Positions 2,409 through 23,545 of a stretch of 64,000 nucleotides of DNA are shown in pieces. The DNA comes from Candidatus Bathyarchaeia archaeon. Lineage in GTDB: Archaea > Thermoproteota > Bathyarchaeia > 40CM-2-53-6. Made by a program: the position numbers and the translations under genes. The DNA is taken from contig JBEKFP010000001.1 of the NCBI GenBank assembly GCA_050013255.1, positions 992,001 to 1,056,000 of the forward strand, read 5' to 3'. The notes beneath the pieces are model-generated. The model had not been told where the DNA came from, made no database searches, and saw only the letters and a program-made list of their open reading frames with translations. Positions within the stretch are counted from its first letter, which is position 1. Every line of letters begins with the position of its first letter.

Positions 2409-3350
2409 CTAACCGCTTTCCCTAGTGTAAGGGACACCTAATGCCGACGGTTGGCGTGCGCCTCGTGCAATTGCGACTAGAATTGCGAGGGTAAGCAAGT
2501 AGGGGACCATGAGTAGGAAGTAGTAAGGTATTATTGAGCCAATAACCTGGAAGAACGACCCCAGAAGATACGCTGCGCCGAAGAGAAATGTTCCGAAGAA
2601 AGCTCTTGCAGGGCGCCACTTGCCGAAATAAACCATCGCAACGGCAATGAACCCCCTTCCGGCCGTGATGTTCTCTGCCTGAAAGGCATGAGAAGAAATT
2701 GCTAGGTATGCCCCCCCGATTCCTGCCAAAGCTGCGCCCGCAATCACCGCAATGAATCGTATCTTCGCCACGTTGACCCCCAAGGTGTCAGCGGCCGAAG
2801 GATTCTCGCCAACGGCCCTTAGGTTAAGCCCGAACGTTGTCCGCCCAATAATGAGAACGACGATTATGAGTGCGATGAAGGCGAGGTACTCCATTATGTC
2901 CTGTGAAAAGAGTGAATCACCTAGTACGGGAACCGAGGATAGGATTGGGATTGGTAACTTTGGGAGGCCTTCAATTCGGATGGTAGTACGAATTTGGCCG
3001 AACAGAGCTTCGTAGACGAATCCTGAAAGTCCGAGGCCGAGGAAGTAGATTCCGAGTCCCGAGAGTATCTGGTTCTGTTTCAAGCTGATTGAGATAAAAG
3101 CCATCAAAAGACCGAGTAGCGCCCCACAGAATGCACCCAAGAGTACACCAAGCAAGTTCCCATGTAGGAAGAAACTAACTGAGAATGCAGAGATTGCTCC
3201 AACGAGCATGACTCCTTCTGTGCCAAGATTTATCACGCCACCTCGTTCGCTAATGACCTCGCCCAGTGCTGCGAAGGCCATTGGAACGCTCAATTCTAAC
3301 ATTGATGAAATTAGACCTGAGATTGCTGCAGCATCAAGGACAACGCCCAA
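2409..3350 (-). CDS. Nucleoside/purine ABC transporter permease (CUT2/BMP-associated)
   Basis: ERGGVINLGTEG, LRAVGENPSAADTLG, GRGFIAVA, FGKWRP motifs. Confidence 0.9.
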   Translation of the reverse strand: MGVVLDAAAISGLISSMLELSVPMAFAALGEVISERGGVINLGTEGVMLVGAISAFSVSFFLHGNLLGVLLGAFCGALLGLLMAFISISLKQNQILSGLGIYFLGLGLSGFVYEALFGQIRTTIRIEGLPKLPIPILSSVPVLGDSLFSQDIMEYLAFIALIIVVLIIGRTTFGLNLRAVGENPSAADTLGVNVAKIRFIAVIAGAALAGIGGAYLAISSHAFQAENITAGRGFIAVAMVYFGKWRPARAFFGTFLFGAAYLLGSFFQVIGSIIPYYFLLMVPYLLTLAILVAIARGARQPSALGVPYTRESG

Positions 3351-3353
3351 TTC

Positions 3354-4454
3354 CTAACTCCTCCTGATTTCGTACCTAGCGAAAACCTGGATGATGAGGA
3401 TTAGAACTATGATTACTCCTTGGGACAGCAATGATAAGGTTTGGGGAATTTGAAGTGCTCTCTCGACCGAGGACATCCCCGAAATGAGGCTTCCAAAGAA
3501 TATCGATGAGAAGATCACGCCTAATGGATGCAGGTTTCCAAGCAGGGAGACCACGACCGCAGTGTAGCCGAGTCCTGAAGCTTGTTCTGGCAACAACTCA
3601 TGGGTGATACCCAGTATGTAGACTCCTCCTCCCAACCCACACAAGGCGCCACTCAGGAACATCGCTGAATTGACCACACGTTTTACTGGAATCCCGCTGG
3701 TCTTAGCTGCTGACGGGTTTAATCCAACTGCACGTATTGTATATCCGAGGGGTGTCTTGAAGAGAATATAGTACGCCAAGACACATGCTGCGACGGATAC
3801 AACGATGCCGACGTTTAAGCTCGACTGGCGCAGAATGATCGGTAGGGAAGTTTCTTGCGGGAAGATGGGTGACTCAGGATAACTTCCCGGAATCGTTTTG
3901 TCTTGGAAGGGCCCTCTTACAAGCCAGTTGAGAGCGTCGATTGCGACATAGTTCATCATGATCGTTGTTATGACCTCGTTAATTCCGAGTCTCGACTTCA
4001 TCAGGGCGGGGACGCCAGCGAACAAACCTCCGCCCAAAAGCGACAGTGCTAGGGCAAGGGGAATCATGACGTAGGAAGGCATTGGCGCTTTCAAGAAGAG
4101 TAATACAAACCATGTTACGGCGATAGCGCCGAAGATTTGTTGTCCTTCAGCGCCGATATTCCAGACTTTGCAGCGGAAAGCAATGACCAGGCCCACAGCC
4201 ATCAGCATGAGAGGCGTCGCTTGTACAATTGATTCAGCAAACCCTGCCTGAGTCCCTATAGTTCCCCTGTAGAGAGCGTCCAACGCCACAATCGGGTTCT
4301 TTCCGGCGGCTGCCAGAACTAACAGAACGACAAGGGGCGAAACAATGTAGGCGAACACCGTGACCGTCAACATGGCTCTGCGGCTTACATCTAGACGCTG
4401 AGTTACCTTGAATCCAAGCAAGCCGTCACGCCGCCAAAGACATCTTCTTGGCAC
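3354..4454 (-). CDS. Nucleoside/purine ABC transporter permease (true start probably ~4421)
   Basis: WNIGAEGQ, INEVITTIMMNY, IRAVGLNPSAA, LLGNLHPLG motifs. Confidence 0.9.
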   Translation of the reverse strand: MPRRCLWRRDGLLGFKVTQRLDVSRRAMLTVTVFAYIVSPLVVLLVLAAAGKNPIVALDALYRGTIGTQAGFAESIVQATPLMLMAVGLVIAFRCKVWNIGAEGQQIFGAIAVTWFVLLFLKAPMPSYVMIPLALALSLLGGGLFAGVPALMKSRLGINEVITTIMMNYVAIDALNWLVRGPFQDKTIPGSYPESPIFPQETSLPIILRQSSLNVGIVVSVAACVLAYYILFKTPLGYTIRAVGLNPSAAKTSGIPVKRVVNSAMFLSGALCGLGGGVYILGITHELLPEQASGLGYTAVVVSLLGNLHPLGVIFSSIFFGSLISGMSSVERALQIPQTLSLLSQGVIIVLILIIQVFARYEIRRS

Positions 4455-5991
4455 CCGTCATCAGGAGGCCGATTTCTTTTAGATTGAATTGTCCTGGTTC
4501 GAGTAGCCCGACTATCTGACCTTTGTACATGACTGCGACTCTGTCGCTTAGAGTGATCAACTCTGATAAGTCCTCATCCACTAGCAGTACCGCAGCGCCT
4601 CGATTCCGTTGTTGGACCAATATGCTCCTGACGAATTCTGTTGCAGCTATATCGAGGCCACGCGTCGGTTGAGAAACCACAATTAGCGAGGGCTGCCCAG
4701 ACAGTTCTCTTGCTAGAATTAGTTTCTGGAGGTTCCCTCCAGACAATGATCTCGCTTTGGCTGAAATACCCGTCGTCATGATGCTGAATTGCTTGACGGC
4801 TTCCTCTCCTCTGCGAGTGATCTCTTTGTCATTCAGTAGCGTTGGAATCCTATCCACGAGCCTATTGCAGATTGGCGGTTTGTCAAAATCTTTGAGAATC
4901 ATGTTTTCGTCTAAACGAAAGTCTGCGATACTGGCGTCCTCGATCCTGTTTTCGGGCACATAGGCAAGCCCCAAGTCGATCATCCTTCTAGGTGGTCTAC
5001 CAGTGATGTCCTTACATGCAAACTTCAACGATCCTGAGGAGGGTTTTCTCAGCCCCACAATTGCTTGAACAAGTTCCCTTTGGCCATTCCCAGAGACGCC
5101 GGCTATGCCGATGATTTCCGCTTTTCGAACATCGAAGGTGACGCCCTTGACTGCTTCAAGACCTCTGTCATCATATACGGACAGCTGTCTTACTTCTAGA
5201 ACAATTTCTCCCGCACCAGTCCTCGTCTTATCGGCTATTGGAGGGATTTCCTCTCCAACCATCATGTGGGCTAACTTCTCCTTGTTCACCACTTGAGTTG
5301 GCTGCGTTGCAACTTTGCGGCCTTTTCTGAGAACCGTGACGCGGTCGGTGACATCCATTACTTCGTCGAGCTTGTGAGTGATTAGAACGATGGAGATTCC
5401 ACTCTGTTTCAATCCCCGTAGTGAGTTAAAGAAATCGTTAACCTCAGTGGGGGCAAGAACGGAGGTGGGTTCGTCTAGAATCAGAATTTTCGCATCACGG
5501 TATAACGCCTTGAGTATCTCGACACGTTGGAGTTCTCCCACCGCGAGTTGCCAGATCTGGGCCCGGGGGTCGACATGCAGACCATGTTTTTCTGCCAAGC
5601 TTGAAATTCTAGCCTCCGCGGAGGCTAGGTCCGTTAGAATTCCTTTCGGGGACTTTAATCCCAGAACAATGTTCTCAACTACGGTCATGTCGCTTACGAG
5701 CTTGAAGTGTTGATGTACCATCCCAATACCGTGTTTAATTGCGTCTGATGGTGATCTGAACGCGGCTGGTTGACCGAAAATGTCAATTGAGCCTGCATCT
5801 GGCTGATAAAATCCGTACAGGATATTCATGAGTGTAGTCTTGCCGGCACCGTTCTCCCCCAAAAGCCCATGTATTTCACCAGCATGAAGCTCAAATTCAA
5901 TCATATCATTCGCTACGACGCCGCCAGGAAATTTTTTCACAATACCATGCATTACAACGGCGGAAGTTTTGTTGTCCATTTCGTCTGCCAC
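4426..5991 (-). CDS. ABC transporter ATP-binding protein with two NBDs (CUT2 type)
   Basis: GENGAGKT, ILDEPT, GVSGNGQ, LSGGNLQK, QPTRGLD. Confidence 0.93.
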   Translation of the reverse strand: MADEMDNKTSAVVMHGIVKKFPGGVVANDMIEFELHAGEIHGLLGENGAGKTTLMNILYGFYQPDAGSIDIFGQPAAFRSPSDAIKHGIGMVHQHFKLVSDMTVVENIVLGLKSPKGILTDLASAEARISSLAEKHGLHVDPRAQIWQLAVGELQRVEILKALYRDAKILILDEPTSVLAPTEVNDFFNSLRGLKQSGISIVLITHKLDEVMDVTDRVTVLRKGRKVATQPTQVVNKEKLAHMMVGEEIPPIADKTRTGAGEIVLEVRQLSVYDDRGLEAVKGVTFDVRKAEIIGIAGVSGNGQRELVQAIVGLRKPSSGSLKFACKDITGRPPRRMIDLGLAYVPENRIEDASIADFRLDENMILKDFDKPPICNRLVDRIPTLLNDKEITRRGEEAVKQFSIMTTGISAKARSLSGGNLQKLILARELSGQPSLIVVSQPTRGLDIAATEFVRSILVQQRNRGAAVLLVDEDLSELITLSDRVAVMYKGQIVGLLEPGQFNLKEIGLLMTGAKKMSLAA

Positions 5992-6037
5992 TTGCGGTCC
6001 CGTTACCTCGCGTTCTTGCGGACAAAAATGGGAAGGG

Positions 6038-6058
6038 AAGCCCTCAAAGCGAGGGCTT
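6038..6058 (-). terminator. Intercistronic hairpin after the substrate-binding protein gene
   Basis: Perfect 8-bp stem AAGCCCTC/GAGGGCTT followed on the minus strand by a pyrimidine tract and TTTTT. Confidence 0.6.
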
Positions 6059-6066
6059 GTGGACTT

Positions 6067-7260
6067 TTAGGAAACAATGCGTGCCTGCTGCAGACCGATG
6101 GCAATGAAGAGGCTCGTCTGGATGGATAGGAGTGATGTTCCGATTGTCAATGGACCCAGTGGGTTGGTCTGAATTTGGCCGCTTTGGACTTGAGATGCAA
6201 TGGTCATGACTTCTTGTTGAACGGCTGCTGGGACGTTATTGGTGTTCAGTTCGATTTCCAGCCCTCCGGTCTGGAGGTTTGCCCAGTATTTCCCGTTTGT
6301 CTTACCCGCCGCTACGTCAGCAAGCCATTGTTTCATTACTGCGTCCCATTTCCAAGAGCCGCTACCGAGGACCAATTTCTCAGCGCCTACTGGTGGGTTA
6401 TCTGCGATGTCAACGCCGTTACCGATCAGATACACGTTCTTCTCGATTGCGCCTTCAATTGTTCCTAGTACGACGCCGTCGCCCATCGTTGCGATTACGT
6501 CGGCTCCCTGGCTTGCCATCAATTCAGCATCGGATTTGGCGCCCTGCAAATCGTGGAAGTCACCCACTGCGACAACACTGATGCTACCGCCTGGCTGAAT
6601 GCCATTGCCGCCACCCGGAAGTGGTCCATATGTGTACGTTATGTTGGAGTTTGCGTCATGGGCTCCTTGCGCAAAGTTAGGTTCGAATCTTGCAAGTTCA
6701 GCGACTCTTGCACCCATTACGTATCCGATCTTGTTGGTGTGAGACATTTTTCCGGCGAGGTAGCCGAGAATGTACCCGGTTTGGTCCGTTCGGACATCTG
6801 CGATGGCAAGGTTTGGTAGTGAGTTATTCCATCCTGCGATCACTAGGAAGTTTGTGTTGGGGTATTGTGGAGCAATTTCCTGAATGGGGATCTGGAACTC
6901 GAAACCGGAACCGATGATCAGGTTGTATCCTTTGCTGACGAAGTCTCTGACGTCAGCCTGAATCTGAGCGCTTTCTTGGTGGTTTTGTACCCAGCATCCG
7001 CAGGTGTTTATGCCCTCGTTCCTGTTGGTCAGTAGGTCTTCGAATGAATTGTAGCTTGCTTGGTTCCATGCAAGGTCGTCTGTTCGGCCGGGCATTATCA
7101 ATGCGATTTTCATCGGCGCGCTTGTCATGGATTCAGTTATTGAAGTGTTTGTGGCGGGTACCGTTGGCTTCTGTGTAAGGTAGAATGCTGCGCCAGCGAC
7201 GATGATGATAACTACGATTGCTACAGCAGCGATTGTTTTGTTGTTCTTTGCTTGGCTCAT
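6067..7260 (-). CDS. BMP-family (PnrA-like) ABC substrate-binding protein with N-terminal membrane anchor
   Basis: N-terminal TM helix, Thr/Ser linker, DDLAWNQ, GYNLIIGSGFEF, GYILGYLAGKMS..KIGYV, GADVI. Confidence 0.88.
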   Translation of the reverse strand: MSQAKNNKTIAAVAIVVIIIVAGAAFYLTQKPTVPATNTSITESMTSAPMKIALIMPGRTDDLAWNQASYNSFEDLLTNRNEGINTCGCWVQNHQESAQIQADVRDFVSKGYNLIIGSGFEFQIPIQEIAPQYPNTNFLVIAGWNNSLPNLAIADVRTDQTGYILGYLAGKMSHTNKIGYVMGARVAELARFEPNFAQGAHDANSNITYTYGPLPGGGNGIQPGGSISVVAVGDFHDLQGAKSDAELMASQGADVIATMGDGVVLGTIEGAIEKNVYLIGNGVDIADNPPVGAEKLVLGSGSWKWDAVMKQWLADVAAGKTNGKYWANLQTGGLEIELNTNNVPAAVQQEVMTIASQVQSGQIQTNPLGPLTIGTSLLSIQTSLFIAIGLQQARIVS

Positions 7261-7303
7261 AATGTATATTCAACTCTCCGTAACCGAGAGTGGCTGGTTC
7301 CAA

Positions 7304-8074
7304 CTAGATATAATTTGCGAAGGCTTCCCAGCCACGGTTATGCTGAAACAGCCACGTTTCCATAGCCAATGGCACGAATACGCTTTCAGTCGCGGATGTG
7401 GCGACGGGATTTAGCTTGTAGCCTATCAGACTTTGGGTGACTTTCTCATGGTCGTTATAGAATTCGCCGTACACAACTTGTCCCAATCCGGTGTCAAACC
7501 ACAAGGTCTCTGACAAAGTTCCATTCTGCATAACCATGATCTTGAATGCTTGGAATTGGCCGAGAGGAGTCGAAACCTCATCCATTGACGAAGTTATTCT
7601 CACCTGTAAGAGCAATGCAGTCGAAGTGATGGTTGTGTTATTCAGCTTGGTTATGGTTAGCACTGTGCTCTTCACATTCCATTGGTCTCCAACATGGAAG
7701 GGGACTTGAAAGAGTTGGACAGGTGGTTTGTAGGTTATTGTGGAGTTAGCGAGTAGGTTTCCGATAGCTGGCGTGAACGTTCTGACTTCATGCCAATCAA
7801 GCGTGATCCAGAGGTATTGAGTCGAAATATGGTGTGGATCATCGCGTAGAATCATGTACGTTTCTGTACCATTCAAATCGATAATTCCTCTGACTGACTC
7901 GGTTAACTGGTAGCTTTCAGAATCAGGAAATACAATCTTGTAGTTCCAGCTGTCCCCCACCGCCAATCGGCGACTCAACGCACCTTTCGACTCATGCCAC
8001 CTGATTGCTAGTGGATAGAAAACCACGAGGGCCGTCACCAAAAGTCCCAGTGCAATGATAGAGCGTTTTGACAG
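7304..8074 (-). CDS. Hypothetical membrane-anchored or secreted beta-rich protein (ORF track start 8041; possible CTG start at 8074)
   Basis: LAVGDSWNY, PFHVGDQW, EVSTPLGQFQAFK, LWFDTGLGQV pattern typical of secreted beta-sheet proteins. The N-terminal signal anchor extends in frame to 8074. Confidence 0.65.
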   Translation of the reverse strand: MSKRSIIALGLLVTALVVFYPLAIRWHESKGALSRRLAVGDSWNYKIVFPDSESYQLTESVRGIIDLNGTETYMILRDDPHHISTQYLWITLDWHEVRTFTPAIGNLLANSTITYKPPVQLFQVPFHVGDQWNVKSTVLTITKLNNTTITSTALLLQVRITSSMDEVSTPLGQFQAFKIMVMQNGTLSETLWFDTGLGQVVYGEFYNDHEKVTQSLIGYKLNPVATSATESVFVPLAMETWLFQHNRGWEAFANYI

Positions 8075-8169
8075 AATCCGCCCGCCTTTCTATACTTGTC
8101 AGGTTTGTTGCACAGGGAATTCAATTAAAGCAGACCCGTGCAACTCAGGCACCCGGCGAAGTGGTCATC

Positions 8170-9561
8170 ATGGCATCTATTCTGATTTCCGGCGGGACAG
8201 TCATAACCATGGATGCGAATCGGCGGATTATTAGGGACGGAGCGGTTCGGGTCGAAAACGACCGTATCGCCGAAGTGGGGAAGGCAGACCAAATTGGGGT
8301 GCATCCGCGGCCTGAGTACGAAATAGACGCGAAAGGGATGGTCGTCCTTCCGGGGCTAATTGATACGCACGTTCACCTCGCCCAAGCTCTTATTCGTGGA
8401 TGTGCGGACGATACATCATTAATAGATTGGCTTCAGAAATTTGTCTGGCCCCTTCAAGGCAACTTCGAAGCAGGGGATGGGAAGGCAAGTGCCAATCTGT
8501 GCATGCTTGAAATGATAAAATCCGGAACGACAACCTTCCTCGAGAGCCTACTGCACACGCGTTACGGCTTCGATGGCATAGCCGAAAGCGTGCAGAAGTC
8601 AGGAATGCGTGGCATCCTCTCAAAGACTGTTATGGGATTGCCGGGCTACGGAACCGAAAAAAGCATAATGCATCCCGGAATGATCGAAGACGCTGAAACC
8701 TGCCTTCGCGAAGTCGAATCACACTTCAAACGGTGGGACGGCAAAGCGAACGAGAGGATTAAGGTTTGGTATGGTGCTCGGTCGCTTGGTGGCTGCACAA
8801 AAGACCTGTACGAACGTATCGCAAACGGCGCTCGGGGTCTCGGAACCGGAGTAACGATGCACCTGAGTGAGGTTCAGGAGGACGTTCGGTATGCCAAGAA
8901 AGAGTTCGGAATGATGCCAGCGGAATTCATGAATAAAGTCGGTTTAGTGGGCCAGAATGTTGTTTTCGCCCACGGGGTCTGGCTCACTGAGAAGGAATGG
9001 CGAATATTGGCCGATAAGGGAGGTAGTGTTGCCCATTGCCCATCATCTAACATGAAGCTTGCATCTGGAATTGCGAAGGTCCCGGAGATGTTGCGAGCGG
9101 GAGTGAATGTGGGTCTCGGATGTGACGGTGGCCCAAGCAACAACTGCTACGACATTGTTCGTGAAATGAAAACGGCTTCGCTACTTCAAAAGGCAAGGTT
9201 GCTCGACCCACTAGTGATGAGTGCTGAGACGGTTCTGGAAATGGCCACGATCCACGGAGCAAAAGCCATTGGCCAGCAGAAAGACTTGGGGTCGATCGAG
9301 GTGGATAAGAAGGCTGATGTAATCTTGATAGCACTGAACAAACCTCACCTGACACCGGTTTTCAACCCAGTTTCACACCTCATTTACGCGGCGGAGGGAA
9401 CCGATGTCGAAACTGTGATAATTGATGGAGAAGTCGTAATGGAAAACAGAAACCTCAAAACACTCGAAGAGGAGGAAGTCCTCAAAGAGGCAAACGAAAG
9501 GGGCCAAAAGCTCTTGGAAAGGGCGGGTCTCGAAATCGAACCCAAGTGGGCGGTTTCCTAA
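8170..9561 (+). CDS. Amidohydrolase of the MtaD/SsnA/AtzA-like nucleobase/nucleoside deaminase family
   Basis: PGLIDTHVH, MHLSE, HCPSSNMKLASG, GCDGGPSNN. ATG 8170 preferred to the ORF-track TTG 8068. Confidence 0.88.
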   Translation: MASILISGGTVITMDANRRIIRDGAVRVENDRIAEVGKADQIGVHPRPEYEIDAKGMVVLPGLIDTHVHLAQALIRGCADDTSLIDWLQKFVWPLQGNFEAGDGKASANLCMLEMIKSGTTTFLESLLHTRYGFDGIAESVQKSGMRGILSKTVMGLPGYGTEKSIMHPGMIEDAETCLREVESHFKRWDGKANERIKVWYGARSLGGCTKDLYERIANGARGLGTGVTMHLSEVQEDVRYAKKEFGMMPAEFMNKVGLVGQNVVFAHGVWLTEKEWRILADKGGSVAHCPSSNMKLASGIAKVPEMLRAGVNVGLGCDGGPSNNCYDIVREMKTASLLQKARLLDPLVMSAETVLEMATIHGAKAIGQQKDLGSIEVDKKADVILIALNKPHLTPVFNPVSHLIYAAEGTDVETVIIDGEVVMENRNLKTLEEEEVLKEANERGQKLLERAGLEIEPKWAVS

Positions 9562-9618
9562 GAATCTACCATAAGGTTCAAGTTTGAAGTAGCGTTGCGA
9601 AATGGTGGTCTGAGGCAA

Positions 9619-10671
9619 ATGAGCATAAAGTGGGCGAAATCGCGTAAGGTCGCTGACGGCGTATTCCAAACGATTGGCCGGACTCCACTCGTTAAACTGC
9701 GGAGGATACCGGCCTCTGAGGTGGTCAAAGCGAACATTCTGGTTAAACTTGAGTACATGAATCCTACCGGCAGCCTCAAGGACCGTATATATTTCGAAAT
9801 GATAACGAGGGCGATTGAGCGCGGGGATTTGCGGCCTGAAATGGAGATACTGGAAGCTTCTACGGGTAATGCAGGTATCGCTTGCTCATTTGTTGGCACT
9901 ACGCTAGGTCACAAGGTAACGATCGTTATGCCTGCGGGCATGAGCCAAGAGAGGATGAAGATCATACGGGCTTACGGAGCCGAGATCATTACAACGCCAG
10001 GGGCAGAAAGCGACGTGGACTTATGTCTGAAGAAGATTGAGGAACTGAAGCAGGCAAGTCCAGGCAAATATTGGGAGCCTGGCCAGTTCAGCAACAAAGA
10101 CAATGTTGCCGCCCATTACAAAACGACTGGCCCTGAGATTTGGGAGCAGAGCGGAGGAAAAGTTGACTGTTTCCTAGCGTCGCAAGGAACTGGGGGAACT
10201 TTGACGGGTGTTGGCAAATACCTGAGAAAGAAGAAAAAGAAGGTGGCGCTTTTCGCAGTGGAACCGTCAGAAGCACCAATCCTAGCTCACCGTCAATGGG
10301 GAACTCACAAGATCGAAGGAATTGGAGACGGGTTTGTCCCGGTAAACCTCGACCTTAGCTATCTCACAGGAATAATTACAACTGGTTCCGATGAATCCAT
10401 TGAAATGGGCAGAAGGCTAGCTAGAGAAGAAGGAATCTTCTGCGGGATATCCTCAGGATGCAATGTACTTGCAGCAATAAAGGTCGCCAAGCGTCACCCT
10501 GGATACAAAACGATTGTAACGATGGTGAATGACACCGGCCAACGATACTTCTCAACCGAGCTCTGCGGCGAAAAGAAACATGTGGAAGTCCCAGAAAGAG
10601 AACATCCACTTGACGAGTATACCACTACGCAGCTGGACAGGTATCAATCGCGTTGGGAAATTGTTGAATGA
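9619..10671 (+). CDS. Cysteine synthase-like PLP enzyme (fold type II)
   Basis: IGRTPLV, NPTGSLKDR (PLP Lys), EASTGNAG, GTGGT, HKIEGIG, GISSG. Confidence 0.88.
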   Translation: MSIKWAKSRKVADGVFQTIGRTPLVKLRRIPASEVVKANILVKLEYMNPTGSLKDRIYFEMITRAIERGDLRPEMEILEASTGNAGIACSFVGTTLGHKVTIVMPAGMSQERMKIIRAYGAEIITTPGAESDVDLCLKKIEELKQASPGKYWEPGQFSNKDNVAAHYKTTGPEIWEQSGGKVDCFLASQGTGGTLTGVGKYLRKKKKKVALFAVEPSEAPILAHRQWGTHKIEGIGDGFVPVNLDLSYLTGIITTGSDESIEMGRRLAREEGIFCGISSGCNVLAAIKVAKRHPGYKTIVTMVNDTGQRYFSTELCGEKKHVEVPEREHPLDEYTTTQLDRYQSRWEIVE

Positions 10672-11918
10672 AGTCCTTCCTTAAGCTCATGAAGTGCGCT
10701 CGCTGTGGGAGGGAGTACGAACCTGGCTCTGGCGCGATCCGGTGCGCAAATCACGATGACGGCCGCTTAGATATCTTCTATGACTACGAAGCTTTGCGCG
10801 GTGCCATCAACATAGAGGCACTGTCGAGAAGGCCAAACGGAGTTTGGAAGTACAGGGAACTTTTGCCGATTAACGATCCGAAGAACATAGTCAGCCTCGG
10901 AGAAGGCGGAACCCCCTTTCTGCGGGCACATCGATTGGGCGAGAAGCTAGGCTTGGATAATCTTTGGCTGCTGGATGACACTCGCAATCCGACCGCCTCG
11001 TTCAAAGACAGACCGATGACTGTTGGCGTCTCGAAAGCTGTTGAGCTGGGCTACCGGACTGTTGTGTCAGCCTCAAGTGGTAACGCTGCTGCAGCGTTAT
11101 CGGCCTACTCAGCGAAGGCAGGGCTCCGATGCATCACCTTCGTCCCAGAGATGACGAGCATAGGAAAATTGGCCCAGCTAACGATGTACGGGGCTCACGT
11201 CGTCAAGGTTCGAGGGTTAGAATCAGGGGAGGACCCAACTGTGAGAATGCTCAAGGCTGTTTGCGACCAGAACAACTGGTACCCTTGCCCAAGCTTTGGC
11301 CCCATGAACCCGTACCAAGCAGAGGGCCCGAAGACTATGTCCTATGAGATCGTTGAAGGGCTCGGTTGGGAAGTCCCCAACTGGGTCTTCGTTCCGGTGG
11401 GCGCAGGGGGTGCACTGGCGGGAAACTGGAAAGGCTACCTCGATTTTCAAAACTTAGGTTTCATAAAATCAATGCCGAGAATGGCCGCGGTCCAATCGAC
11501 CGGTTGCGCGCCCGTAATTCGGGCCTACGAGCAAGGCGCCGACCCAAAGAACATAGTTCCGTGGGAAATGGCCGACTCCATTGCAACAGGACTCATGGAC
11601 CCATATCCTTGGGATGGCGATGCGGCTCTTGTTGCCATCCGCAACTCTCATGGCGCGGCCGTTGCAGTTTCGAACGACGAAATCCTAGAAGCACAGAGGA
11701 AGCTCGCCAAATACGAAGGAATTTTCGCTGAACCGTCCGGCGTAACATCGCTAGCCGGCGTGATCAAAGAACGTGAAAATATAGACAGGGCTGATTGTGT
11801 TGTAGTGGAGATAACGGGAAGCGGTTTGAAAGATCCGAATGTGGCAACAAGAGGAATGCCAGAGATACCTATCATTGACGCCTCAATGCAAGAATTGGAT
11901 CGTGTACTGAAACTCTAG
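10668..11918 (+). CDS. Threonine synthase-like PLP enzyme, paralog 1
   Basis: N-terminal CxxC, SLGEGGTP, NPTASFKDR, ASSGNAA, EGIFAEP, TGSGLKD. ATGA overlap with the upstream gene. Confidence 0.88.
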   Translation: MKSFLKLMKCARCGREYEPGSGAIRCANHDDGRLDIFYDYEALRGAINIEALSRRPNGVWKYRELLPINDPKNIVSLGEGGTPFLRAHRLGEKLGLDNLWLLDDTRNPTASFKDRPMTVGVSKAVELGYRTVVSASSGNAAAALSAYSAKAGLRCITFVPEMTSIGKLAQLTMYGAHVVKVRGLESGEDPTVRMLKAVCDQNNWYPCPSFGPMNPYQAEGPKTMSYEIVEGLGWEVPNWVFVPVGAGGALAGNWKGYLDFQNLGFIKSMPRMAAVQSTGCAPVIRAYEQGADPKNIVPWEMADSIATGLMDPYPWDGDAALVAIRNSHGAAVAVSNDEILEAQRKLAKYEGIFAEPSGVTSLAGVIKERENIDRADCVVVEITGSGLKDPNVATRGMPEIPIIDASMQELDRVLKL

Positions 11919-11933
11919 TTCAAGGAGGCGTCC

Positions 11934-12962
11934 TCACTTTTTCCTGCGGCCCATGGTCACTGCGAGAACGGCCATTTTGGTGTACATGCCATTCTCCGCT
12001 TGGGGATAGATAACCGACTGTGGGCCATCCATTACTTGATCGGTAGCTTCTTCTCCGCGAAGCACAGGCAGCACATGAGTCACGACAGCCTTTCTGTCCA
12101 TCCTATCAAGTAAATCCTGATTCAACGTCCAATCGCGGTACTTCTCATGTAATTCCATCTCTCTTTCCTTCCCAAACTTACTTGCCCCAACTTGAAGCAA
12201 TTCATATGACGCCCAATTTCTAGGGAAGACCGCATGGGCTCCCTCGATTGCTGATTTCAAATCGTTTGAGACTTGAAAGCTGCCACCCGCCTCTGTGGCG
12301 TTTGATTTTGCTGTTTCCACTATCTTTGGGTCAATTTCGAAGCCCGGCGGGTGGGCCAGAACAACGTCCATTCCGAAGCGGGGCATGATCAATGCCTCCT
12401 CTTGTATACTACACCTGCCACGGAAGCTCTTCGCGTACCCCCACATTATGACATACTTCTTACCCTGCACCTTACCCAATGATTCCTGAACGGTCATCAA
12501 ATCGGCAAGTCCCTGAGTCGGGTGGTAAGTACAGCATGCCATGTTAATGACGGGAATCTCCGCATGTTCTGCGTACTCTCGAACGACGGAAACACCAGCA
12601 CCGTAAACGTAATCGATTGCTGAATCTAGAATTCGAATCCCTAACCCGTGGCCATATTTCTCATACATCTTAGCCACATCCTTCGGAGCTTCCCCCGACC
12701 CGAGCCGGGTTGTTGAGACGTCGATATACTGCGCATGGCCGCCTAGGTATGTCATACCAGCTTCAAACGCAGCTCTCGTCCTGGTCGAGGGCGCATAAAA
12801 CAACATGAAAAACGTCTTATCACGAAGAAGGGGTGGGACGCGGCCGCGCCTATATTTCGCCTTCAGGTCCCGTGCCACTTTGAGCGTTGCCCTGAGTTCA
12901 TCAAGCGACCAATCTTGCGTGGTGATTAAGTCTCTACCGGCCAAATCAACTTTCGGCATCAA
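11934..12962 (-). CDS. Carbamoyltransferase (OTCase superfamily, YgeW/AOTCase-like), paralog A
   Basis: STRTR, HPTQ, WGY, RFGMDVVLAHPPGF, HVLP, QAEN. Confidence 0.88.
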   Translation of the reverse strand: MMPKVDLAGRDLITTQDWSLDELRATLKVARDLKAKYRRGRVPPLLRDKTFFMLFYAPSTRTRAAFEAGMTYLGGHAQYIDVSTTRLGSGEAPKDVAKMYEKYGHGLGIRILDSAIDYVYGAGVSVVREYAEHAEIPVINMACCTYHPTQGLADLMTVQESLGKVQGKKYVIMWGYAKSFRGRCSIQEEALIMPRFGMDVVLAHPPGFEIDPKIVETAKSNATEAGGSFQVSNDLKSAIEGAHAVFPRNWASYELLQVGASKFGKEREMELHEKYRDWTLNQDLLDRMDRKAVVTHVLPVLRGEEATDQVMDGPQSVIYPQAENGMYTKMAVLAVTMGRRKK

Positions 12963-12991
12963 AAGCTCCTCTATTTATCTCGCAGACAATC

Positions 12992-13044
12992 TTTCGGACT
13001 AGATAGAACTTTCCGAAACGGGGAAAATCATGAAAGTTCATAAA
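12992..13044. promoter_or_regulatory. Back-to-back divergent promoters with inverted repeats (TTTCGGA/TCCGAAA; GAACTTTC/GAAAGTTC)
   Basis: GAAAG+TTCATAAA on the plus strand and GAAAG+TTCTATCT on the minus strand, between carbamoyltransferase A and arcC. Confidence 0.5.
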
Positions 13045-13088
13045 TGGTAGAGCGAGAGCTTGTGCCTCTCTCGTGAGATGAAGCGAGA

Positions 13089-14042
13089 TTGACTGACAAA
13101 CTCATGGTGATCGCCCTCGGCGGAAACGCCCTTCTCCAGCGAGGACAGAAAGGTTCCTTCGATGACCAATACCGTAACGTAAAGGTTACCGTATCGAAAA
13201 TCGCGGATCTGGTCCAGCGCGGATACAAGATAGTCATGACCCATGGGAACGGCCCGCAAGTGGGTGCCACACTTCTGAGGCACGAGGCCGCTAAGAATAT
13301 CGTCCCGGCTTTTCCACTTGATGCATGCGGCGCTGAGACCCAAGGTTTCATTGGATATATGATCCAGCAGGCCCTCAGGAACGAGCTCAAATCCCGCGGA
13401 ATCGACAAGTACGTTGTTACCATAATAACGCGGGTCATTGTCGACAAGCATGATTCCGCCTTTCAGAACCCAACAAAACCAATCGGCCCTTTCTATTCGA
13501 AAGAGGAAGCAGCCAAAGTGAAAGAGCAGAAGCCTGAGTTGGTTATCAAGGAGGATGCTGGCCGCGGCTATAGACGAGTAGTGCCCTCTCCTGACCCGAA
13601 GATAATTGCGGAGCGTTCCGCCATCAGAGCCCTAGTGGATGCTGATTTCGTCGTGGTCGCTTGTGGCGGCGGTGGAATTCCAATCATTGAAGAGAACGGC
13701 CACGCCGTCGGAGTTGAGGCAGTGATCGATAAAGACCTGGGCGGCCAACGGTTAGCAACGCTAATTGGTGCAAACATATTTGTCATCCTAACTGACGTGG
13801 ACGGCGCCTACATAAACTACGGAACCTCGAAACAAGAATTGATCAAAGAAGCAACCTCAGGCATGCTGAGGAATCACCTTCGAGATGGACAGTTCAAAGA
13901 AGGGAGCATGGCGCCAAAGGTCGAGGCCGCAATCAGATTTGTTGAGAGCGGCGGGGAACGTGCAGTAATTGCGGCTCTAGGAAACTTAACCGAAGCCGTT
14001 GACGGAAAGACTGGGACACAAATCGTAATGCCAAGAGCTTAA
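13089..14042 (+). CDS. arcC: Carbamate kinase
   Basis: ALGGNALL, THGNGPQVG, PTKPIGPFY, RRVVPSPDP, GGGGIP, EAVIDKD, GSMAPK. Confidence 0.96.
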   Translation: MTDKLMVIALGGNALLQRGQKGSFDDQYRNVKVTVSKIADLVQRGYKIVMTHGNGPQVGATLLRHEAAKNIVPAFPLDACGAETQGFIGYMIQQALRNELKSRGIDKYVVTIITRVIVDKHDSAFQNPTKPIGPFYSKEEAAKVKEQKPELVIKEDAGRGYRRVVPSPDPKIIAERSAIRALVDADFVVVACGGGGIPIIEENGHAVGVEAVIDKDLGGQRLATLIGANIFVILTDVDGAYINYGTSKQELIKEATSGMLRNHLRDGQFKEGSMAPKVEAAIRFVESGGERAVIAALGNLTEAVDGKTGTQIVMPRA

Positions 14043-14083
14043 TTCAAATAAGCGCAGGCAAACAGCCCGAGAAGGTAACCAAT

Positions 14084-15154
14084 ATGGTGTCGTTTGTAGG
14101 CAAATGGAAGGGTAAGCATTTCTTAGATACAGATGATTTCTCGCAAGAACAAATTAAGGAAGTTCTAGATGCAGCCGACGTATTGAGGAAACTATTCCGT
14201 GCCCGAAAGGAGCATCACTATCTCCCTGGAAAGACCCTCTTCATGATGTTTTATAACCGCTCTCTTAGGACAAGGAATTCTTTCGAGGCGGGAATGTATC
14301 AACTCGGCGGTCACGCCCACTTTCTTAGTCCACAAGACGTTTACACCCCCGCGCTTCCCGAAGACATGGTTGCCTATCAAACTGAAGCAATTTCAGACGT
14401 TTCACGTGTCCTGAGTAGGTATGGGGACGCGATTGCAATCAGAATCTATGGCGATGCAGCGAAATGGAACATAGGCAGAGGCCACAAGGTGGTTCGGGAA
14501 TTTGCAACGTACGCGACTATTCCAGTGTTGAACATGGAGGATGATATGTATCATCCATTCCAAGCTTTGGCCGATGCTCAGGCTATGAGAAATGCTATTC
14601 CTAAACTGAAGGGAAAGAAACTCGTTGTCTCTTATGCGTACTCTGGCGGACTAAAGCCACTGGCCGTCCCGCAAAGTGAGGTTCTAATCGGAACGCAGTT
14701 AGGAATGGATGTGGTCCTCGCGCACCCGCAAGGCTTCGAACTAGAAGACGTAGTCCTTGATGCCGCGAAGAAGAATGCGGATAGGTACGGCGGTGGGTTC
14801 CATGTAGTTAATGATATGAAGGAAGCCTTCAATGGCGCTGATGTAGTGTACCCGAAGGCTTGGTCGCCGAAGAACTATTTCCCTCCGCACCGCGACTCAC
14901 TAGACAAGACCGGCGCGACCACTTACCAAGACCAGTTCAAGGACTGGATATGCACCCAGCAAATGATGGATCTGACGAAGAAGGGTAAGTACATGCATTG
15001 CGGTCCGGCAGACCGGGGACAAGAAGTTACTGACGAAGTAATTGATAACATGAGTTACTCACTATACTTCGAGCAAGCCGAGAACAGGTTGCACGCCCAA
15101 AAAGCTGTAATGGCTATGGTCATGGGGGATCGCGGCACAACACGCCGAAAGTAA
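14084..15154 (+). CDS. Carbamoyltransferase (YgeW/AOTCase-like), paralog B
   Basis: SLRTR, HPFQ, YAYSGGLKPLAVPQ, GMDVVLAHPQGF, ADVVYPKAW, YMHCGPAD, QAENR. Confidence 0.88.
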   Translation: MVSFVGKWKGKHFLDTDDFSQEQIKEVLDAADVLRKLFRARKEHHYLPGKTLFMMFYNRSLRTRNSFEAGMYQLGGHAHFLSPQDVYTPALPEDMVAYQTEAISDVSRVLSRYGDAIAIRIYGDAAKWNIGRGHKVVREFATYATIPVLNMEDDMYHPFQALADAQAMRNAIPKLKGKKLVVSYAYSGGLKPLAVPQSEVLIGTQLGMDVVLAHPQGFELEDVVLDAAKKNADRYGGGFHVVNDMKEAFNGADVVYPKAWSPKNYFPPHRDSLDKTGATTYQDQFKDWICTQQMMDLTKKGKYMHCGPADRGQEVTDEVIDNMSYSLYFEQAENRLHAQKAVMAMVMGDRGTTRRK

Positions 15155-15176: not shown

Positions 15177-15707
15177 ATGCCCGTAGGGATCCGAAGAACT
15201 GGTAGCGGCATGTCCAAGGCTAGACCCAGTTCAATTGTACTCGCAAACTGGGGAAGGCGTTTCATCGCCTGGTTCATCGATTACATCATCATTAATGTGA
15301 TGCTTGCATACATCAGGTTGGAAGACCTAGAATTCCAACTTGTTCCAGCAATCCTTCTGCCACGCTTGCCGGGATTCGATATTTCCATCTGGTCGCCATT
15401 GTCCGTTATGGCCTTCTTTCTCTACTGGGCCCTTTCGGAATGGTACTTCGGAAGGTCGATTGGCCAGCTCTTACTGAATATTCGACTAGCAGACCTTCAA
15501 GGGAAAAGGCCAAGCCTGAAAGCTTCCGCGATACAGAGCGTGGGAAAGTCCCTTCTCTTGCCCGTTGATTGCTTGATTGGTTGGGTCTACTCGCCGTGCC
15601 GCGTGAATAGGCAGAGGTTCTTCAACGGGCTGTCTAATACTATTGTCATATTCATTGGGTCGCCAACGCGCACCGTGAAACAGGGCGAATATGCGAGAGA
15701 ACCGTGA
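15177..15707 (+). CDS. RDD-family membrane protein (start may be 15210)
   Basis: LANWGRRFIAWFID...GRSIGQLLLNIR...RQRFFN..SNTIV. Confidence 0.8.
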   Translation: MPVGIRRTGSGMSKARPSSIVLANWGRRFIAWFIDYIIINVMLAYIRLEDLEFQLVPAILLPRLPGFDISIWSPLSVMAFFLYWALSEWYFGRSIGQLLLNIRLADLQGKRPSLKASAIQSVGKSLLLPVDCLIGWVYSPCRVNRQRFFNGLSNTIVIFIGSPTRTVKQGEYAREP

Positions 15708-18327: not shown

Positions 18328-18807
18328 GTGTCTTCGTTGGGCCAAGTTCTGAGAGAGTCGGAATACGTCAAACGGACTCCAAAGTCTCGAGCGATGTTTG
18401 AGCGTGCTAAGAGGGTTGAGCCCGCTGGTGTTTCATACAAGAATAGATACTTCGAGCCCTACCCATTTTTCGTCAGAGAGGCTCGTGGTGCGAAACTGAT
18501 TGACCTAGATGGAAACGCATTCATGGACTACTGGTGTACGCACTTTGCAATGATTCTTGGGCACGCACATCCCACTGTCATGCAAGCCATTAGGACACAA
18601 ACAGAAAACGGGTGGCATTTTGGCCTCGCCCACGAGTTGGAAGTAACCCTCTCAGAAACTATAACGAAAAACGTTCCGAGCGCTGAACTAGTTCGATACA
18701 CGAGCTCCGGTAGCGAAGCAAACTTCTTCGCGATCCGGTTAGCGAGAACATTCACCCGAAGAGAGAAGATTGCTAAATTCGAAGGCTGTTGGCATGGGGC
18801 GTATGAT
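18328..18807 (+). pseudogene. hemL: 5' third of a glutamate-1-semialdehyde aminomutase / class III aminotransferase, truncated
   Basis: GAKLIDLDGN..DY, ILGHAHP, VRYTSSGSEA, KFEGCWHGAYD. Similarity then stops and the ORF ends at 18888 without the PLP-lysine region. Confidence 0.8.
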
Positions 18808-19143
18808 GTCGGGCACACCCTTCGAATTGTACACCTACAATACTGTCAGAAAACGATATCCTGCGGTTGCGGGATGGGAAATCTATGAACAGTATACAAT
18901 CCCTGATGGCTCAAGGGTAGATTTCAGCGTAATAGGAGAGGGGACCTAGAGACGCTGGTCGTTGAAGCAAAAGACAAGGAAACCCTACTCCCGACCGACA
19001 TAGACCAAGTTCTTCACTACTCAAAGGTTTGCGGAACAAACAATGGAATCATCTACGTAGCAAACGATACAGATTTCTCTTCTGTTCAAGACTACGCTAG
19101 TGAACTCGGAGTCCAGATAATTAGAACTCAATGGCGTGCTTGA
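18806..19143 (+). pseudogene. Frameshifted PD-(D/E)xK (Mrr-like) endonuclease
   Basis: Frame 1 from ATG 18806: MSGTPFELYTY...GWEIYEQ...DGSRVDF. After a shift near 18925: ETLVVEAKDK...DIDQVLHY...GIIY...YASELGVQII, stop 19141-19143. Confidence 0.65.
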
Positions 19144-20897: not shown

Positions 20898-22613
20898 ATG
20901 AATAGCTTGGAATTCGATAATGTGACATTTTCCTACGCGGGAGCAAAGGAACCTGCGCTGAAGGATATCAACCTCAAGATCCCCAAAGGGCAAAGTGTAC
21001 TAATCGCCGGCCCAAACGCCGCCGGCAAGACGACGCTCTGCAGATGCATGAATGGCCTTGTCCCACATTTCTTCATCGGTGACCTCAACGGAAAAGTGAC
21101 AATAAACGGCATCAACAGCAAGCAGTCGGGAATAGGGCAGCTTTCGCAAGTGGCTGGACTAGTGTTTGATGATCCGACTAGTCAGTTGGTGTGCTCAACT
21201 GTTAAAGATGAAGCAGCGTTTGGAGCTGAGAATCTAGGTGTTTCAAGAGAAGAGATCGATAGGAGAGTCACAGACGCTCTTGAGGCTGTCAGACTGATAG
21301 GATATGAGACTAGAATTCCCCAAACCCTGTCGGGAGGCGAACAGCAAGCCATAGCAATAGCGTCCATCATGGTCATGGATCCAGAAATTTTCGTCCTCGA
21401 CGAGCCTACCTCAAATCTTGATCCGATTGGATCTATGCAAGTGCTGTCAATCATAAGCGACTTGGCAAGAAAGCAAGAGAAGACGCTGATCGTAGTCTCT
21501 CACAGCATCGAGCACTTCGTCGACCTAGCTGATAGAATAATAGTGATGAACGAAGGGCGAGTAGTATTAGATGACGCTCCTAAGGAAGTCCTTCAGAAGA
21601 CTGAGCAGCTTCTCGATATGGGTTTGTCCCCTCCTGAGGTAACGACGCTTTTTTCACGGCTTCGTGCAGAAGGCGTTAGTCTAGGCGGGGGTAAGATCCC
21701 CATCAGGTTAGAAGAAGCGTATGGCGCGCTAAAGAATGTGTCAGCCAGAAAGGCTCCGGAACCAAAATCATCAGCTGCTGAGAAACGGGGGGATGTCGTA
21801 ATCGAGGTTAAAGGAGTCGAGTTCAGGTATCCTAGCTCGGATGTATTGGCCCTCAATGGCATAAACATCGAGATCAGAAAGAATGAATTTGTCGCAATCA
21901 TCGGTCAAAACGGCTCTGGGAAGTCAACTCTCGTGAAACACTTCAACGGGTTGTTAAGGCCTAGCGGTGGGACCGTGTCTGTTTATGGACTGGGGACTGC
22001 CAAAACGCCTGTGTGGGAGCTCAGTAAGAGGGTGGGTTATGTCTTCCAAAACCCCGATCTGCAGCTCTTCAATACGACCGTGAGAAATGAGATCGATTTC
22101 TCTCTGAAAGCAATCGGCATGCCGCTTGAGAAGAGGGGCGACGTGGTGGAATCTGTCTCCAAGCGACTGAACATACAACAGTATTTGGATACGAGTCCGG
22201 GCACCCTGGACAAGGGGGGAAGACAGCGAGTTGCTATTGCAGCGATATTGGCAATGAACCCCGACATTTTTGTGATCGATGAACCCACAACAGGGCAGGA
22301 TCCAGCGCACAGCAGACAAGTAATGAACATAGCACGTGAGCTTCACTCTGAAGGAAAGACCATTGTCTTCATCACGCACAACATGGAGATTGTGGCCGAG
22401 TATGCACCACGAGGAATCATAATGTTTCATGGACGCGTGCTGTACGACGGGCCTGTGAGGCAACTATTTCAGCAAACCGAAGTTCTCAAGGAATCGTTCT
22501 TAGAAGCACCCCAGATGGTGCGCCTCGCACATATGCTGAGGAATCAGGGATTCCCGTCAACGCTACTAACAGTGGAAGAAATGGGTGAATTCATAAAGCA
22601 AAACGTTGGTTGA
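20898..22613 (+). CDS. ECF transporter ATPase with fused duplicated NBDs
   Basis: GPNAAGKT, LSGGEQQ, LDEPTSNLD, GQNGSGKS, GYVFQNPD, DEPTTGQD. Confidence 0.92.
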   Translation: MNSLEFDNVTFSYAGAKEPALKDINLKIPKGQSVLIAGPNAAGKTTLCRCMNGLVPHFFIGDLNGKVTINGINSKQSGIGQLSQVAGLVFDDPTSQLVCSTVKDEAAFGAENLGVSREEIDRRVTDALEAVRLIGYETRIPQTLSGGEQQAIAIASIMVMDPEIFVLDEPTSNLDPIGSMQVLSIISDLARKQEKTLIVVSHSIEHFVDLADRIIVMNEGRVVLDDAPKEVLQKTEQLLDMGLSPPEVTTLFSRLRAEGVSLGGGKIPIRLEEAYGALKNVSARKAPEPKSSAAEKRGDVVIEVKGVEFRYPSSDVLALNGINIEIRKNEFVAIIGQNGSGKSTLVKHFNGLLRPSGGTVSVYGLGTAKTPVWELSKRVGYVFQNPDLQLFNTTVRNEIDFSLKAIGMPLEKRGDVVESVSKRLNIQQYLDTSPGTLDKGGRQRVAIAAILAMNPDIFVIDEPTTGQDPAHSRQVMNIARELHSEGKTIVFITHNMEIVAEYAPRGIIMFHGRVLYDGPVRQLFQQTEVLKESFLEAPQMVRLAHMLRNQGFPSTLLTVEEMGEFIKQNVG

Positions 22614-23479: not shown

Positions 23480-23531
23480 TGCGAGCTGTAGAAAATTCGG
23501 CCGAACTAAATATCTGAAGAAAAGTAAGTTC

Positions 23532-23545
23532 GAAAGTGTTAAGTA
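23532..23545 (+). promoter_or_regulatory. Internal BRE+TATA-like promoter (GAAAGTGTTAAGTA) ahead of the S component
   Basis: Same GAA(A/G)GTGTTAA core as upstream of two APC permeases; about 33 nt before ATG 23578. Confidence 0.45.

Follow-up and report, generated by a model that had tools for sequence, protein, structure and literature searches.

What would an archaeon gain from two carbamoyltransferases (transcarbamylases, TC1 and TC2) placed on either side of a single carbamate kinase (CK)? The question is raised by a gene cluster near the start of a 64,000-nucleotide stretch of DNA (contig 1, positions 992001-1056000; referred to as the window) from a Bathyarchaeia genome recovered from peat. 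This genome (G000) has a size of 2.46 Mb in contigs C1 to C3 and is rated 100% complete. The nearest genome is a metagenome-assembled genome (MAG) from SPRUCE peat. A first-pass annotation of the sequence had proposed a purine or ureide fermentation cluster, and all of the genes it named, a BMP-type importer, an amidohydrolase, two pyridoxal phosphate (PLP) enzymes and the TC1-CK-TC2 triad, are present where it placed them.

The reductive degradation of urate is the point of reference. In the published pathway, urate is converted to 2,8-dioxopurine by XdhD, reduced by YgfK or UacX, and ring-opened by SsnA and HyuA to give 2,3-diureidopropionate. The ureido groups are then removed by YgeW, using phosphate, and by YgeY, after which YgeX forms pyruvate and YqeA forms ATP. 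The phosphorolysis of 2,3-diureidopropionate by YgeW, with subsequent ATP formation by YqeA, is described in 10.1101/2025.04.24.650524.

The stretch probably represents the downstream half of an archaeal variant of this reductive (2,8-dioxopurine) uric-acid and purine degradation pathway. The reading is drawn from gene identities, clade placement, synteny and co-occurrence, from which all of the enzymatic steps were inferred. Of the earlier proposal, the pathway variant, the atypical transcarbamylases and the synteny gain comparative support; the placing of an SsnA enzyme within the cluster does not, and the absence of xanthine dehydrogenase (XDH) applies only within the stated coordinates.

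Identity of the two transcarbamylases

Both proteins retain the carbamoyl-phosphate motifs S-x-R-T-R and HPxQ and the Arg following H-x-x-P. The DxxxSMG loop and the HCLP motif associated with ornithine are absent from both, TC1 having FPRNWASYE and HVLP and TC2 having YPKAWSPKN and HCGP. The YPKAWSP...FPP loop of TC2 resembles that of YgeW, a knotted transcarbamylase, and of N-acetylornithine transcarbamylase (AOTCase), P-K-x-W-x-P.

Neither protein reached the cut-off of any NCBIfam family model. With TC2 given before TC1, the scores in bits were 231.4 and 212.7 for ornithine transcarbamylase (OTCase; TIGR00658, cut-off 280.85), 275.9 and 206.5 for AOTCase (NF003384, cut-off 288) and 207 and 192 for putrescine transcarbamylase (PTCase; TIGR04384, cut-off 500). 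The two YgeW models gave 169.3 and 140.8 (NF005538, cut-off 453) and 163 and 133.4 (TIGR03316, cut-off 500), and identity to E. coli YgeW is 32% for TC2 and 29% for TC1. The best solved-structure match of TC2 is the AOTCase of Xanthomonas (PDB 3KZC, E 1e-60), with which it shares HCxP and a K-x-W...proline-rich loop in place of the SMG loop. It differs in the residues that confer AOTCase specificity, as alignment to 3KZC and its mutants places Thr at Glu92 and Glu at Lys302, and also in its sub-cut-off score, its position outside the AOTCase clade and its catabolic gene context.

Trees were built with FastTree (129 sequences) and with IQ-TREE (LG+G4, 85 sequences; support as SH-aLRT/UFBoot). 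They hold no named references for PTCase, N-succinylornithine transcarbamylase (SOTCase) or ureidoglycine transcarbamylase (UGTCase), and sequences scoring above the NCBIfam cut-off stand for AOTCase. Three of the 50%-cluster representatives (P0138, P0123 and P0124) lie on contigs of 2-4 kb with little gene context. In the IQ-TREE analysis, support was 99.3/100 for the TC1 clade, 96.4/85 for the TC2 clade and 94.9/92 for the clade containing E. coli YgeW. These three join one another with moderate support, and the sister of the joined group is the AOTCase clade (100/100), which excludes TC1 and TC2. Of seven sequences first taken as AOTCase representatives and scanned, six pass NF003384 with 371-427 bits, whereas P0198 gave no match at E 1e-60 and is placed outside the AOTCase clade by IQ-TREE. 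The OTCase clade, holding E. coli ArgI and the ArgF of G000, is separate from both proteins. The comparison with YgeW, AOTCase and OTCase that the first-pass annotation had called for places TC1 and TC2 in clades of their own, with moderate support for a position beside YgeW. As that annotation had suspected, neither is an ordinary OTCase or AOTCase as judged by cut-offs, specificity residues and clade membership, and on sequence grounds TC1 and TC2 are two distinct transcarbamylase clades.

These results bear on whether the genes serve ordinary catabolism of arginine, citrulline or agmatine, through an OTCase, AOTCase or PTCase acting with CK. Pfam reports only OTCace domains for the two proteins, their orthologues are publicly annotated as ornithine or N-acetylornithine carbamoyltransferases, and the vicinity includes an Ord-like dehydrogenase and a fragment of a class-III aminotransferase. 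Such a route is nevertheless hardly credible, given the missed cut-offs, the lost loop, the replaced Glu92 and Lys302 and the tree positions. A canonical ArgF (423.8 bits) is encoded on C2, and PyrB (387 bits) is also found elsewhere in the genome. No PAD_porph match indicative of agmatine deiminase was detected in the whole genome, and the genome-wide search for arginine deiminase returned one weak ADI-family match of 30 bits. The lack of both deiminases, remarked on earlier for the window, extends to the genome with the exception of that match.

A further alternative is that TC1 and TC2 constitute one hetero-oligomeric transcarbamylase catalysing a single step. Transcarbamylase active sites are located at subunit interfaces, and the two genes are always adjacent and are co-inherited across phyla. 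However, full carbamoyl-phosphate motifs are kept in both proteins, the genes are divergently transcribed in Bathyarchaeia, and the second ureido group would be left without an enzyme, which makes a shared enzyme very improbable.

Clusters in other phyla

Species-representative genomes were scanned with an alignment of the TC2 clade. This gave 80 loci, which were annotated by BLAST against the proteins of the window and the E. coli pathway proteins. TC2 orthologues adjoin a TC1-type paralogue and CK in Caldarchaeales, Desulfurococcaceae, Thermotogota, Bipolaricaulota and other bacteria, and their neighbours include SsnA, HyuA, XDH, MocA, UacX, YgfK or luciferase-like (LLM) reductases, and the ThrC-like enzyme. 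As is the case for YgeW-type genes, the transcarbamylase genes adjoin CK within a uricolytic cluster. In a hot-spring archaeon, 12 kb hold PNP, CK, TC2 (76%), a CysK-like orthologue (65%) directly after TC2, a ThrC-like gene (51%), a racemase, a HyuA-like gene, an energy-coupling factor (ECF) transporter and TC1 (68%). A Desulfurococcaceae MAG carries TC1, TC2, CK, an SsnA-like gene, a UacX-type gene (DHO_dh with two 4Fe-4S domains) and a ThrC-like gene in this order on one strand. In a Caldarchaeales MAG the order is LLM, SsnA-like and ThrC-like, with HyuA-like and adenine deaminase (Ade) genes adjoining. CK-TC2-TC1 is accompanied by XDH subunits, XdhC, MocA, Ade, SsnA or HyuA in Thermotogota, Bipolaricaulota, one member of the Chloroflexota and several unclassified bacteria. 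Sets of BMP-type ATP-binding cassette (ABC) importer genes were seen again in uricolytic clusters of other phyla. The synteny in relatives on which the earlier reading depended is thereby found across phyla as well as in the genus.

Many loci of Chloroflexota, Planctomycetota, Gammaproteobacteria and other groups contain instead one transcarbamylase of the YgeW clade with YgeY, CK, SsnA and YgfK. The best plasmid match to TC2 (40%) occupies the YgeW position in an XDH-XdhC-dpaL-hydA-ygeY cluster of C. botulinum and is annotated as 'ornithine carbamoyltransferase'. Loci with a TC2 identity below 48% were tried as a control set and rejected, as they are themselves uricolytic clusters.

Across all 80 loci, two transcarbamylases without YgeY were found in 28, one transcarbamylase with YgeY in 24, both features in 2 and neither in 26. 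The corresponding figures for the 34 loci of at least 18 kb are 18, 9, 1 and 6 (Fisher p 0.0015 for two transcarbamylases against YgeY, uncorrected for kinship). YgeY is absent from 28 of the 30 loci with two transcarbamylases, in line with a second transcarbamylase occupying the place of the missing amidase. In archaea, Thermotogota, Bipolaricaulota and some further bacteria, this second enzyme is a TC1-clade protein. In most Chloroflexota loci with two transcarbamylases, and in one Planctomycetota locus, it resembles aspartate transcarbamylase (ATCase), the Chloroflexota proteins (L106, L110, L113 and others) being 35-42% identical to PyrB.

It could be that, within the same pathway, one of the two enzymes acts on the purine diureide and the other on a different ureide or on anabolic carbamoyl phosphate. 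A different ureide might be a stereo- or regio-isomer, or an N-carbamoyl amino acid derived from a pyrimidine or hydantoin. Consistent with this, the family has diversified in these archaea (a second cluster in the genus genome G014 and a TC2 paralogue in G018), an M20 enzyme lies beside both transcarbamylases in Thermotogota, and the second enzyme of Chloroflexota is ATCase-like. Against it, every TC1-clade gene in the loci examined has a TC2-clade neighbour, YgeY is missing from nearly all loci with two transcarbamylases as counted above, and no other conserved ureide-forming enzyme accompanies TC1. Such a division of substrates is judged unlikely.

The second cluster of G014 (G014:C1:20001-40000, L038) is paralogous and combines CK and a BMP-type ABC importer with two additional transcarbamylases, an LLM gene (53% to the one upstream of the window), two class-III aminotransferases and a HyuA-like hydantoinase that is 36% identical to E. 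coli HyuA. Its make-up resembles that of a ureide-phosphorolysis route for pyrimidines or dihydropyrimidines. In G018 (G018:C2:1458001-1478000, L039, positions 10214-13190), the TC2 paralogue (56%) lies by a creatininase-family enzyme, an LLM-like reductase and several APC permeases, and may form a third module for reduction, ring opening and phosphorolysis.

The PLP enzymes show a comparable distribution. CysK-like homologues (28-35%) occur in many bacterial uricolytic clusters, and ThrC-like orthologues (31-61%) adjoin SsnA, reductase or transcarbamylase genes in Caldarchaeales, Desulfurococcaceae, Promethearchaeota, Thermotogota and other groups. A ThrC-like gene is present in 34 of the 80 loci, a CysK-like gene in 24 and both in 21; YgeX is present in none of the 80. 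The earlier suggestion that one of these enzymes takes the place of YgeX gains comparative support from the absence of YgeX where the two stand, and the ThrC-like enzyme is a candidate replacement. Two more ThrC-family genes are located in the window, with a fourth approximately 103 kb into the flank, and all ThrC-family genes scanned pass the thrC models.

Related arrangements have been described. In the Chloroflexota variant (Li et al., Life Metab 2025, PMC12507026), a luciferase-family, putatively F420-dependent reductase stands in for YgfK or UacX. The archaeal locus shares with it this putative reductase, the ThrC-like and CysK-like enzymes and CK, while differing in the transcarbamylases: the primary enzyme there is of the YgeW clade and the second, where present, is ATCase-like, whereas both belong to other clades here. 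In Rubrobacter xylanophilus, an atypical transcarbamylase beside CK (ureidoglycine carbamoyltransferase) phosphorolyses allantoate, a purine-derived diureide, and in Nocardioides a second transcarbamylase ('pseudo-ATCase') lies beside a ygeW homologue, xdhABC and hyuA (Barba et al. 2013, PMC4016543). The Rubrobacter enzyme and the pseudo-ATCases are part of the oxidative allantoin route and group with ATCases, whereas TC1 and TC2 group with YgeW and AOTCase and have SsnA and reductase genes around them.

Gene map and conservation in the genus

The features of the window are collected in Table 1. The CysK-like and ThrC-like genes overlap by 4 bp, and the RDD-family gene is followed by a bona fide thioredoxin reductase. 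The Bmp/PnrA-like protein did not reach any NCBIfam equivalog cut-off. The 245-aa protein that begins the transporter operon had no Pfam or NCBIfam match, its lone lead being a weak feature match of 0.90 to DUF3108-like clusters.

Table 1. Positions of the cluster genes and of other features in the window.
Feature	Position	Strand	Basis or remark
ABC permease 2, BMP-type importer	2409..3350	-	PF02653 (BPD_transp_2), 130.7 bits; same place in G014 and G018
ABC permease 1	3354..4454	-	PF02653, 148.8 bits
ABC ATPase, double ABC_tran domain	4426..5991	-	PF00005 in two stretches
Bmp/PnrA-like substrate-binding protein, nucleoside or base receptor type	6067..7260	-	PF02608, 133.5 bits
245-aa protein, first gene of transporter operon	7304..8041	-	50-67% conserved in G014 and G018
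COG0402-type amidohydrolase	8068..9561	+	Amidohydro_1; best model DadD
CysK-like fold-type-II PLP enzyme	9595..10671	+	PALP 243 bits; cysKM 347.7 against cut-off 344
ThrC-like fold-type-II PLP enzyme	10668..11918	+	PALP 250 bits; thrC models passed
TC1 carbamoyltransferase	11934..12962	-	motifs STRTR, HPTQ, HVLP, FPRNWAS
Carbamate kinase (CK)	13089..14042	+	TIGR00746 (arcC) 428.5 against cut-off 358.25
TC2 carbamoyltransferase	14084..15154	+	motifs SLRTR, HPFQ, HCGP, YPKAWSP...FPP
RDD-family membrane protein	15177..15707	+	PF06271; 3' of TC2 in 9/10 genus genomes
Class-III aminotransferase frame	18328..18888	+	186 aa; profile positions 7-130 of 403
ECF transporter and associated enzymes	20898..28363 and 32583..33326		see text
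M20 gene	27215..28363		184 bits on YgeY model (cut-off 321)
2,4-diaminopentanoate-dehydrogenase-like gene with PLP gene	33707..35817	+	dehydrogenase 308.8 bits against cut-off 400
ThrC-family gene	51702..53003	-
ThrC-family gene	54229..55512	+

The first-pass annotation had stated that the cluster lacks XDH and hydantoinase. This holds within its coordinates, but XDH genes flank the cluster: XdhC, two XDH-family L/S/M sets, an LLM reductase and an adenine deaminase lie 1.4-13 kb before the start of the window. XDH-family enzymes and a putative dearomatising reductase (F420-LLM) are found directly upstream, as the pathway would require. The best NCBIfam matches of the LLM reductase are Mer and F420-dependent LLM classes, and CofD and CofE are present in the genome.

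In at least 15 of 18 genus genomes, TC1 and TC2 are approximately 2.1 kb apart, and CK is located between them in every genus genome inspected except G014. Because of this spacing and the intervening kinase, the arrangement is more than chance. The amidohydrolase stands beside TC1-CK-TC2 in 7 of 10 genus genomes with long contigs (in G014 as TC1-TC2, the kinase missing there), and LLM, adenine deaminase or XDH genes follow further along in all 7. The order in the genus is XDH-LLM-(Ade)-amidohydrolase-(PLP genes)-TC1-CK-TC2; in some of the seven loci, transporter or permease-nucleotidyltransferase genes intervene before LLM, Ade or XDH. The PLP genes are present in 4 of these loci and the BMP importer in 2 or 3. 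In G014, whose TC2 is 97% identical, the region without CK between TC1 and TC2 is G014:C1:161159-163484, and the other CK match of this genome (C1:24600-25616) is split in two pieces.

The cluster amidohydrolase scored 442 bits on DadD (cut-off 522) and 224 on SsnA (cut-off 444), with identities of 23% to E. coli SsnA and 26.5% to GuaD. Many bacterial clusters combine this type of enzyme with adenine deaminase and carry an SsnA gene besides. Of the earlier label 'SsnA/MtaD-like', the MtaD-like part is retained and the SsnA part is dropped on the strength of the SsnA score. Its profile matches suggest that this COG0402 protein is most likely an aminopurine or nucleoside deaminase (MtaD/DadD/guanine-deaminase-like), and its true start is probably about 35 codons later than the one listed.

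A better SsnA candidate is encoded elsewhere on the contig (C1:605328-606698). SsnA is its best-matching model (425.8 bits against a cut-off of 444), and it is 34% identical. The gene is divergent from MocA and from an adjoining hydantoinase- or allantoinase-like cyclic amidohydrolase, whose score on the D-hydantoinase model was 318 bits (cut-off 393) and whose identity to HyuA is 28.5%. The groups of the order that have TC2-type genes, namely the genus throughout and two further families, are also those in which orthologues of the SsnA-like gene were found. Contig 2 encodes another cyclic amidohydrolase, which resembles PyrC. Two genomes from another family of the order (G020 and G029) show an unusual expansion, with 12-14 COG0402 paralogues of the SsnA/MtaD type each. 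A search of the genome with the E. coli pathway proteins gave no YgfK, no YgeX and no convincing YgeY orthologue; the best YgeY matches are 25-29% identical, and YgeX had no match with coverage. The genome-wide search for hyuA, xdh and ygfK proposed earlier therefore recovered XDH-family genes, found a HyuA-like gene 385 kb away and found no ygfK.

Other features were noted downstream of the cluster. The class-III aminotransferase gene may be truncated or frameshifted, and relatives have a match at the same place. The ECF stretches encode an ATPase of fused A-A type, CbiQ, a putative S component of 186 aa and several enzymes: an amino-acid racemase, a creatininase-family enzyme, an M20 enzyme of the ArgE/DapE type and an amidohydrolase resembling Xaa-Pro dipeptidase; the hot-spring archaeon has its ECF transporter and racemase inside the TC1/TC2 cluster. 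The 2,4-diaminopentanoate-dehydrogenase-like gene lies beside a PLP gene resembling GntG or low-specificity threonine aldolase. As this dehydrogenase gene is 3-5 kb from TC2 in 9 of 10 relatives, an insertion has separated the two in G000.

The proposed pathway and its meaning

Purine bases or nucleosides would be imported by the BMP-type ABC importer. Amino groups would be removed by the upstream adenine deaminase and the COG0402 amidohydrolase, funnelling aminopurines into the route, and the pair of XDH-family enzymes upstream would set the oxidation state of the ring. Dearomatisation, the task of YgfK or UacX in the published pathway, would fall to the F420-type luciferase-like reductase next to them. 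The two rings would then be opened to 2,3-diureidopropionate by the unlinked SsnA-like and HyuA-like enzymes (contig 1, 605-609 kb). TC2, in the place of YgeW, and TC1, in the place of YgeY, would each cleave one ureido group with phosphate, and the CK between them would convert carbamoyl phosphate to ATP. The remaining C3 diamino acid would be converted to pyruvate and ammonia by the ThrC-like and CysK-like enzymes, replacing YgeX.

The scheme has much in common with the reductive pathway of E. coli and Clostridium: XDH-family enzymes with an adjacent reductase, COG0402 and cyclic amidohydrolases, purine deaminases, an importer, a transcarbamylase of the OTC superfamily beside a YqeA-like CK, and fold-type-II PLP enzymes. 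It differs in the archaeal host, in the lack of YgfK, YgeY and YgeX orthologues, and in having two transcarbamylases outside the YgeW clade, an LLM/F420-type reductase, the ThrC-like and CysK-like enzymes for YgeX, unlinked SsnA-like and HyuA-like genes, and no carbamoyl-phosphate synthetase.

This last difference concerns the direction in which CK operates. The genome has a single CK match, the protein of this cluster, with 46% identity to E. coli YqeA. No carB (carbamoyl-phosphate synthetase large subunit) was found in G000, in which ArgF and PyrB are present. In the absence of this synthetase, carbamoyl phosphate could also go to ArgF and PyrB. None of 31 relatives lacks both carB and CK, and 19 of those genomes (G000 counted) have CK without carB, including families without TC1 and TC2. 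Making carbamoyl phosphate for ArgF and PyrB may be a further, or even the main, task of CK; another option is that this compound comes directly from ureide phosphorolysis.

The same facts would fit a mainly anabolic module, in which CK replaces carbamoyl-phosphate synthetase, TC1 and TC2 carbamoylate amines to ureido compounds, and the PLP enzymes are ordinary cysteine and threonine synthases. The ThrC-like protein does score above the thrC cut-offs, and the CysK-like protein is just above that of cysKM. The linkage to catabolic genes (XDH, SsnA, HyuA and deaminases) across phyla points the other way, as do the catabolic role of the nearest characterised relative, YgeW with YqeA, the canonical ArgF and PyrB elsewhere, and the further ThrC paralogues in the genome. 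Moreover, four genomes (G006, G010, G016 and G017) have carB and yet keep the triad. An anabolic module is accordingly regarded as improbable.

Several observations weigh against the reductive purine pathway as set out here. In 3 of 10 genus genomes, TC1-CK-TC2 has other neighbours and no adjacent purine genes, and the loci of G002 and G003 lack the CysK-like and ThrC-like genes. A distance of 385 kb separates the SsnA-like and HyuA-like genes from the cluster in G000, they are unlinked to it throughout the genus, and the Fo synthase CofH was not found in the genome. Support for the node that joins the TC1, TC2 and YgeW clades is moderate (85.6/69 in IQ-TREE, 0.947 in FastTree), each of the three staying separate. 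Both the second transcarbamylase and YgeY change approximately six times each on the tree, and the test on independent pairs was not significant; with only 5 such pairs, the kinship-corrected test lacks power. Thermotogota clusters have another M20 enzyme in addition to two transcarbamylases, and the second transcarbamylase of Chloroflexota could be a 'pseudo-ATCase' or a true PyrB beside a source of carbamoyl phosphate. Finally, as G000 has no carB and relatives without TC1 and TC2 keep CK, the kinase may run mainly towards carbamoyl phosphate.

The reductive pathway remains the preferred reading. A fuller version of it is put forward tentatively, with the balance of judgement slightly against it. 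In this version, these archaea, along with Thermotogota and Bipolaricaulota, would ferment purine and keep both ureido groups of 2,3-diureidopropionate as carbamoyl phosphate by means of two dedicated transcarbamylase clades. Two ATP would be gained per purine, and pyrimidine and arginine synthesis would also be fed in a genome without carbamoyl-phosphate synthetase. The ThrC-like and CysK-like pair would constitute a new route from a C3 diamino acid to pyruvate.

Neither 10.1101/2025.04.24.650524 nor PMC12507026 mentions archaea or a second transcarbamylase, and the literature searched held no paper on purine catabolism in Bathyarchaeia or on a variant with two transcarbamylases. Comparative genomics suggests a variant that is new relative to the published pathway, the F420-LLM exchange having already been proposed for Chloroflexota.

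The reductive urate pathway was worked out between 2023 and 2025 in gut bacteria only. If true, an archaeal, F420-linked version would extend it to the abundant Bathyarchaeia of sediment and peat and to deep-branching bacteria, with both ureido groups conserved by substrate-level phosphorylation. Functions would be given to two unnamed transcarbamylase clades and to the ThrC-like/CysK-like pair. It also offers an explanation for the source of carbamoyl phosphate in genomes without carbamoyl-phosphate synthetase, and the purines of nucleic acids would be added to the substrates known to supply energy and nitrogen in the anoxic subsurface.

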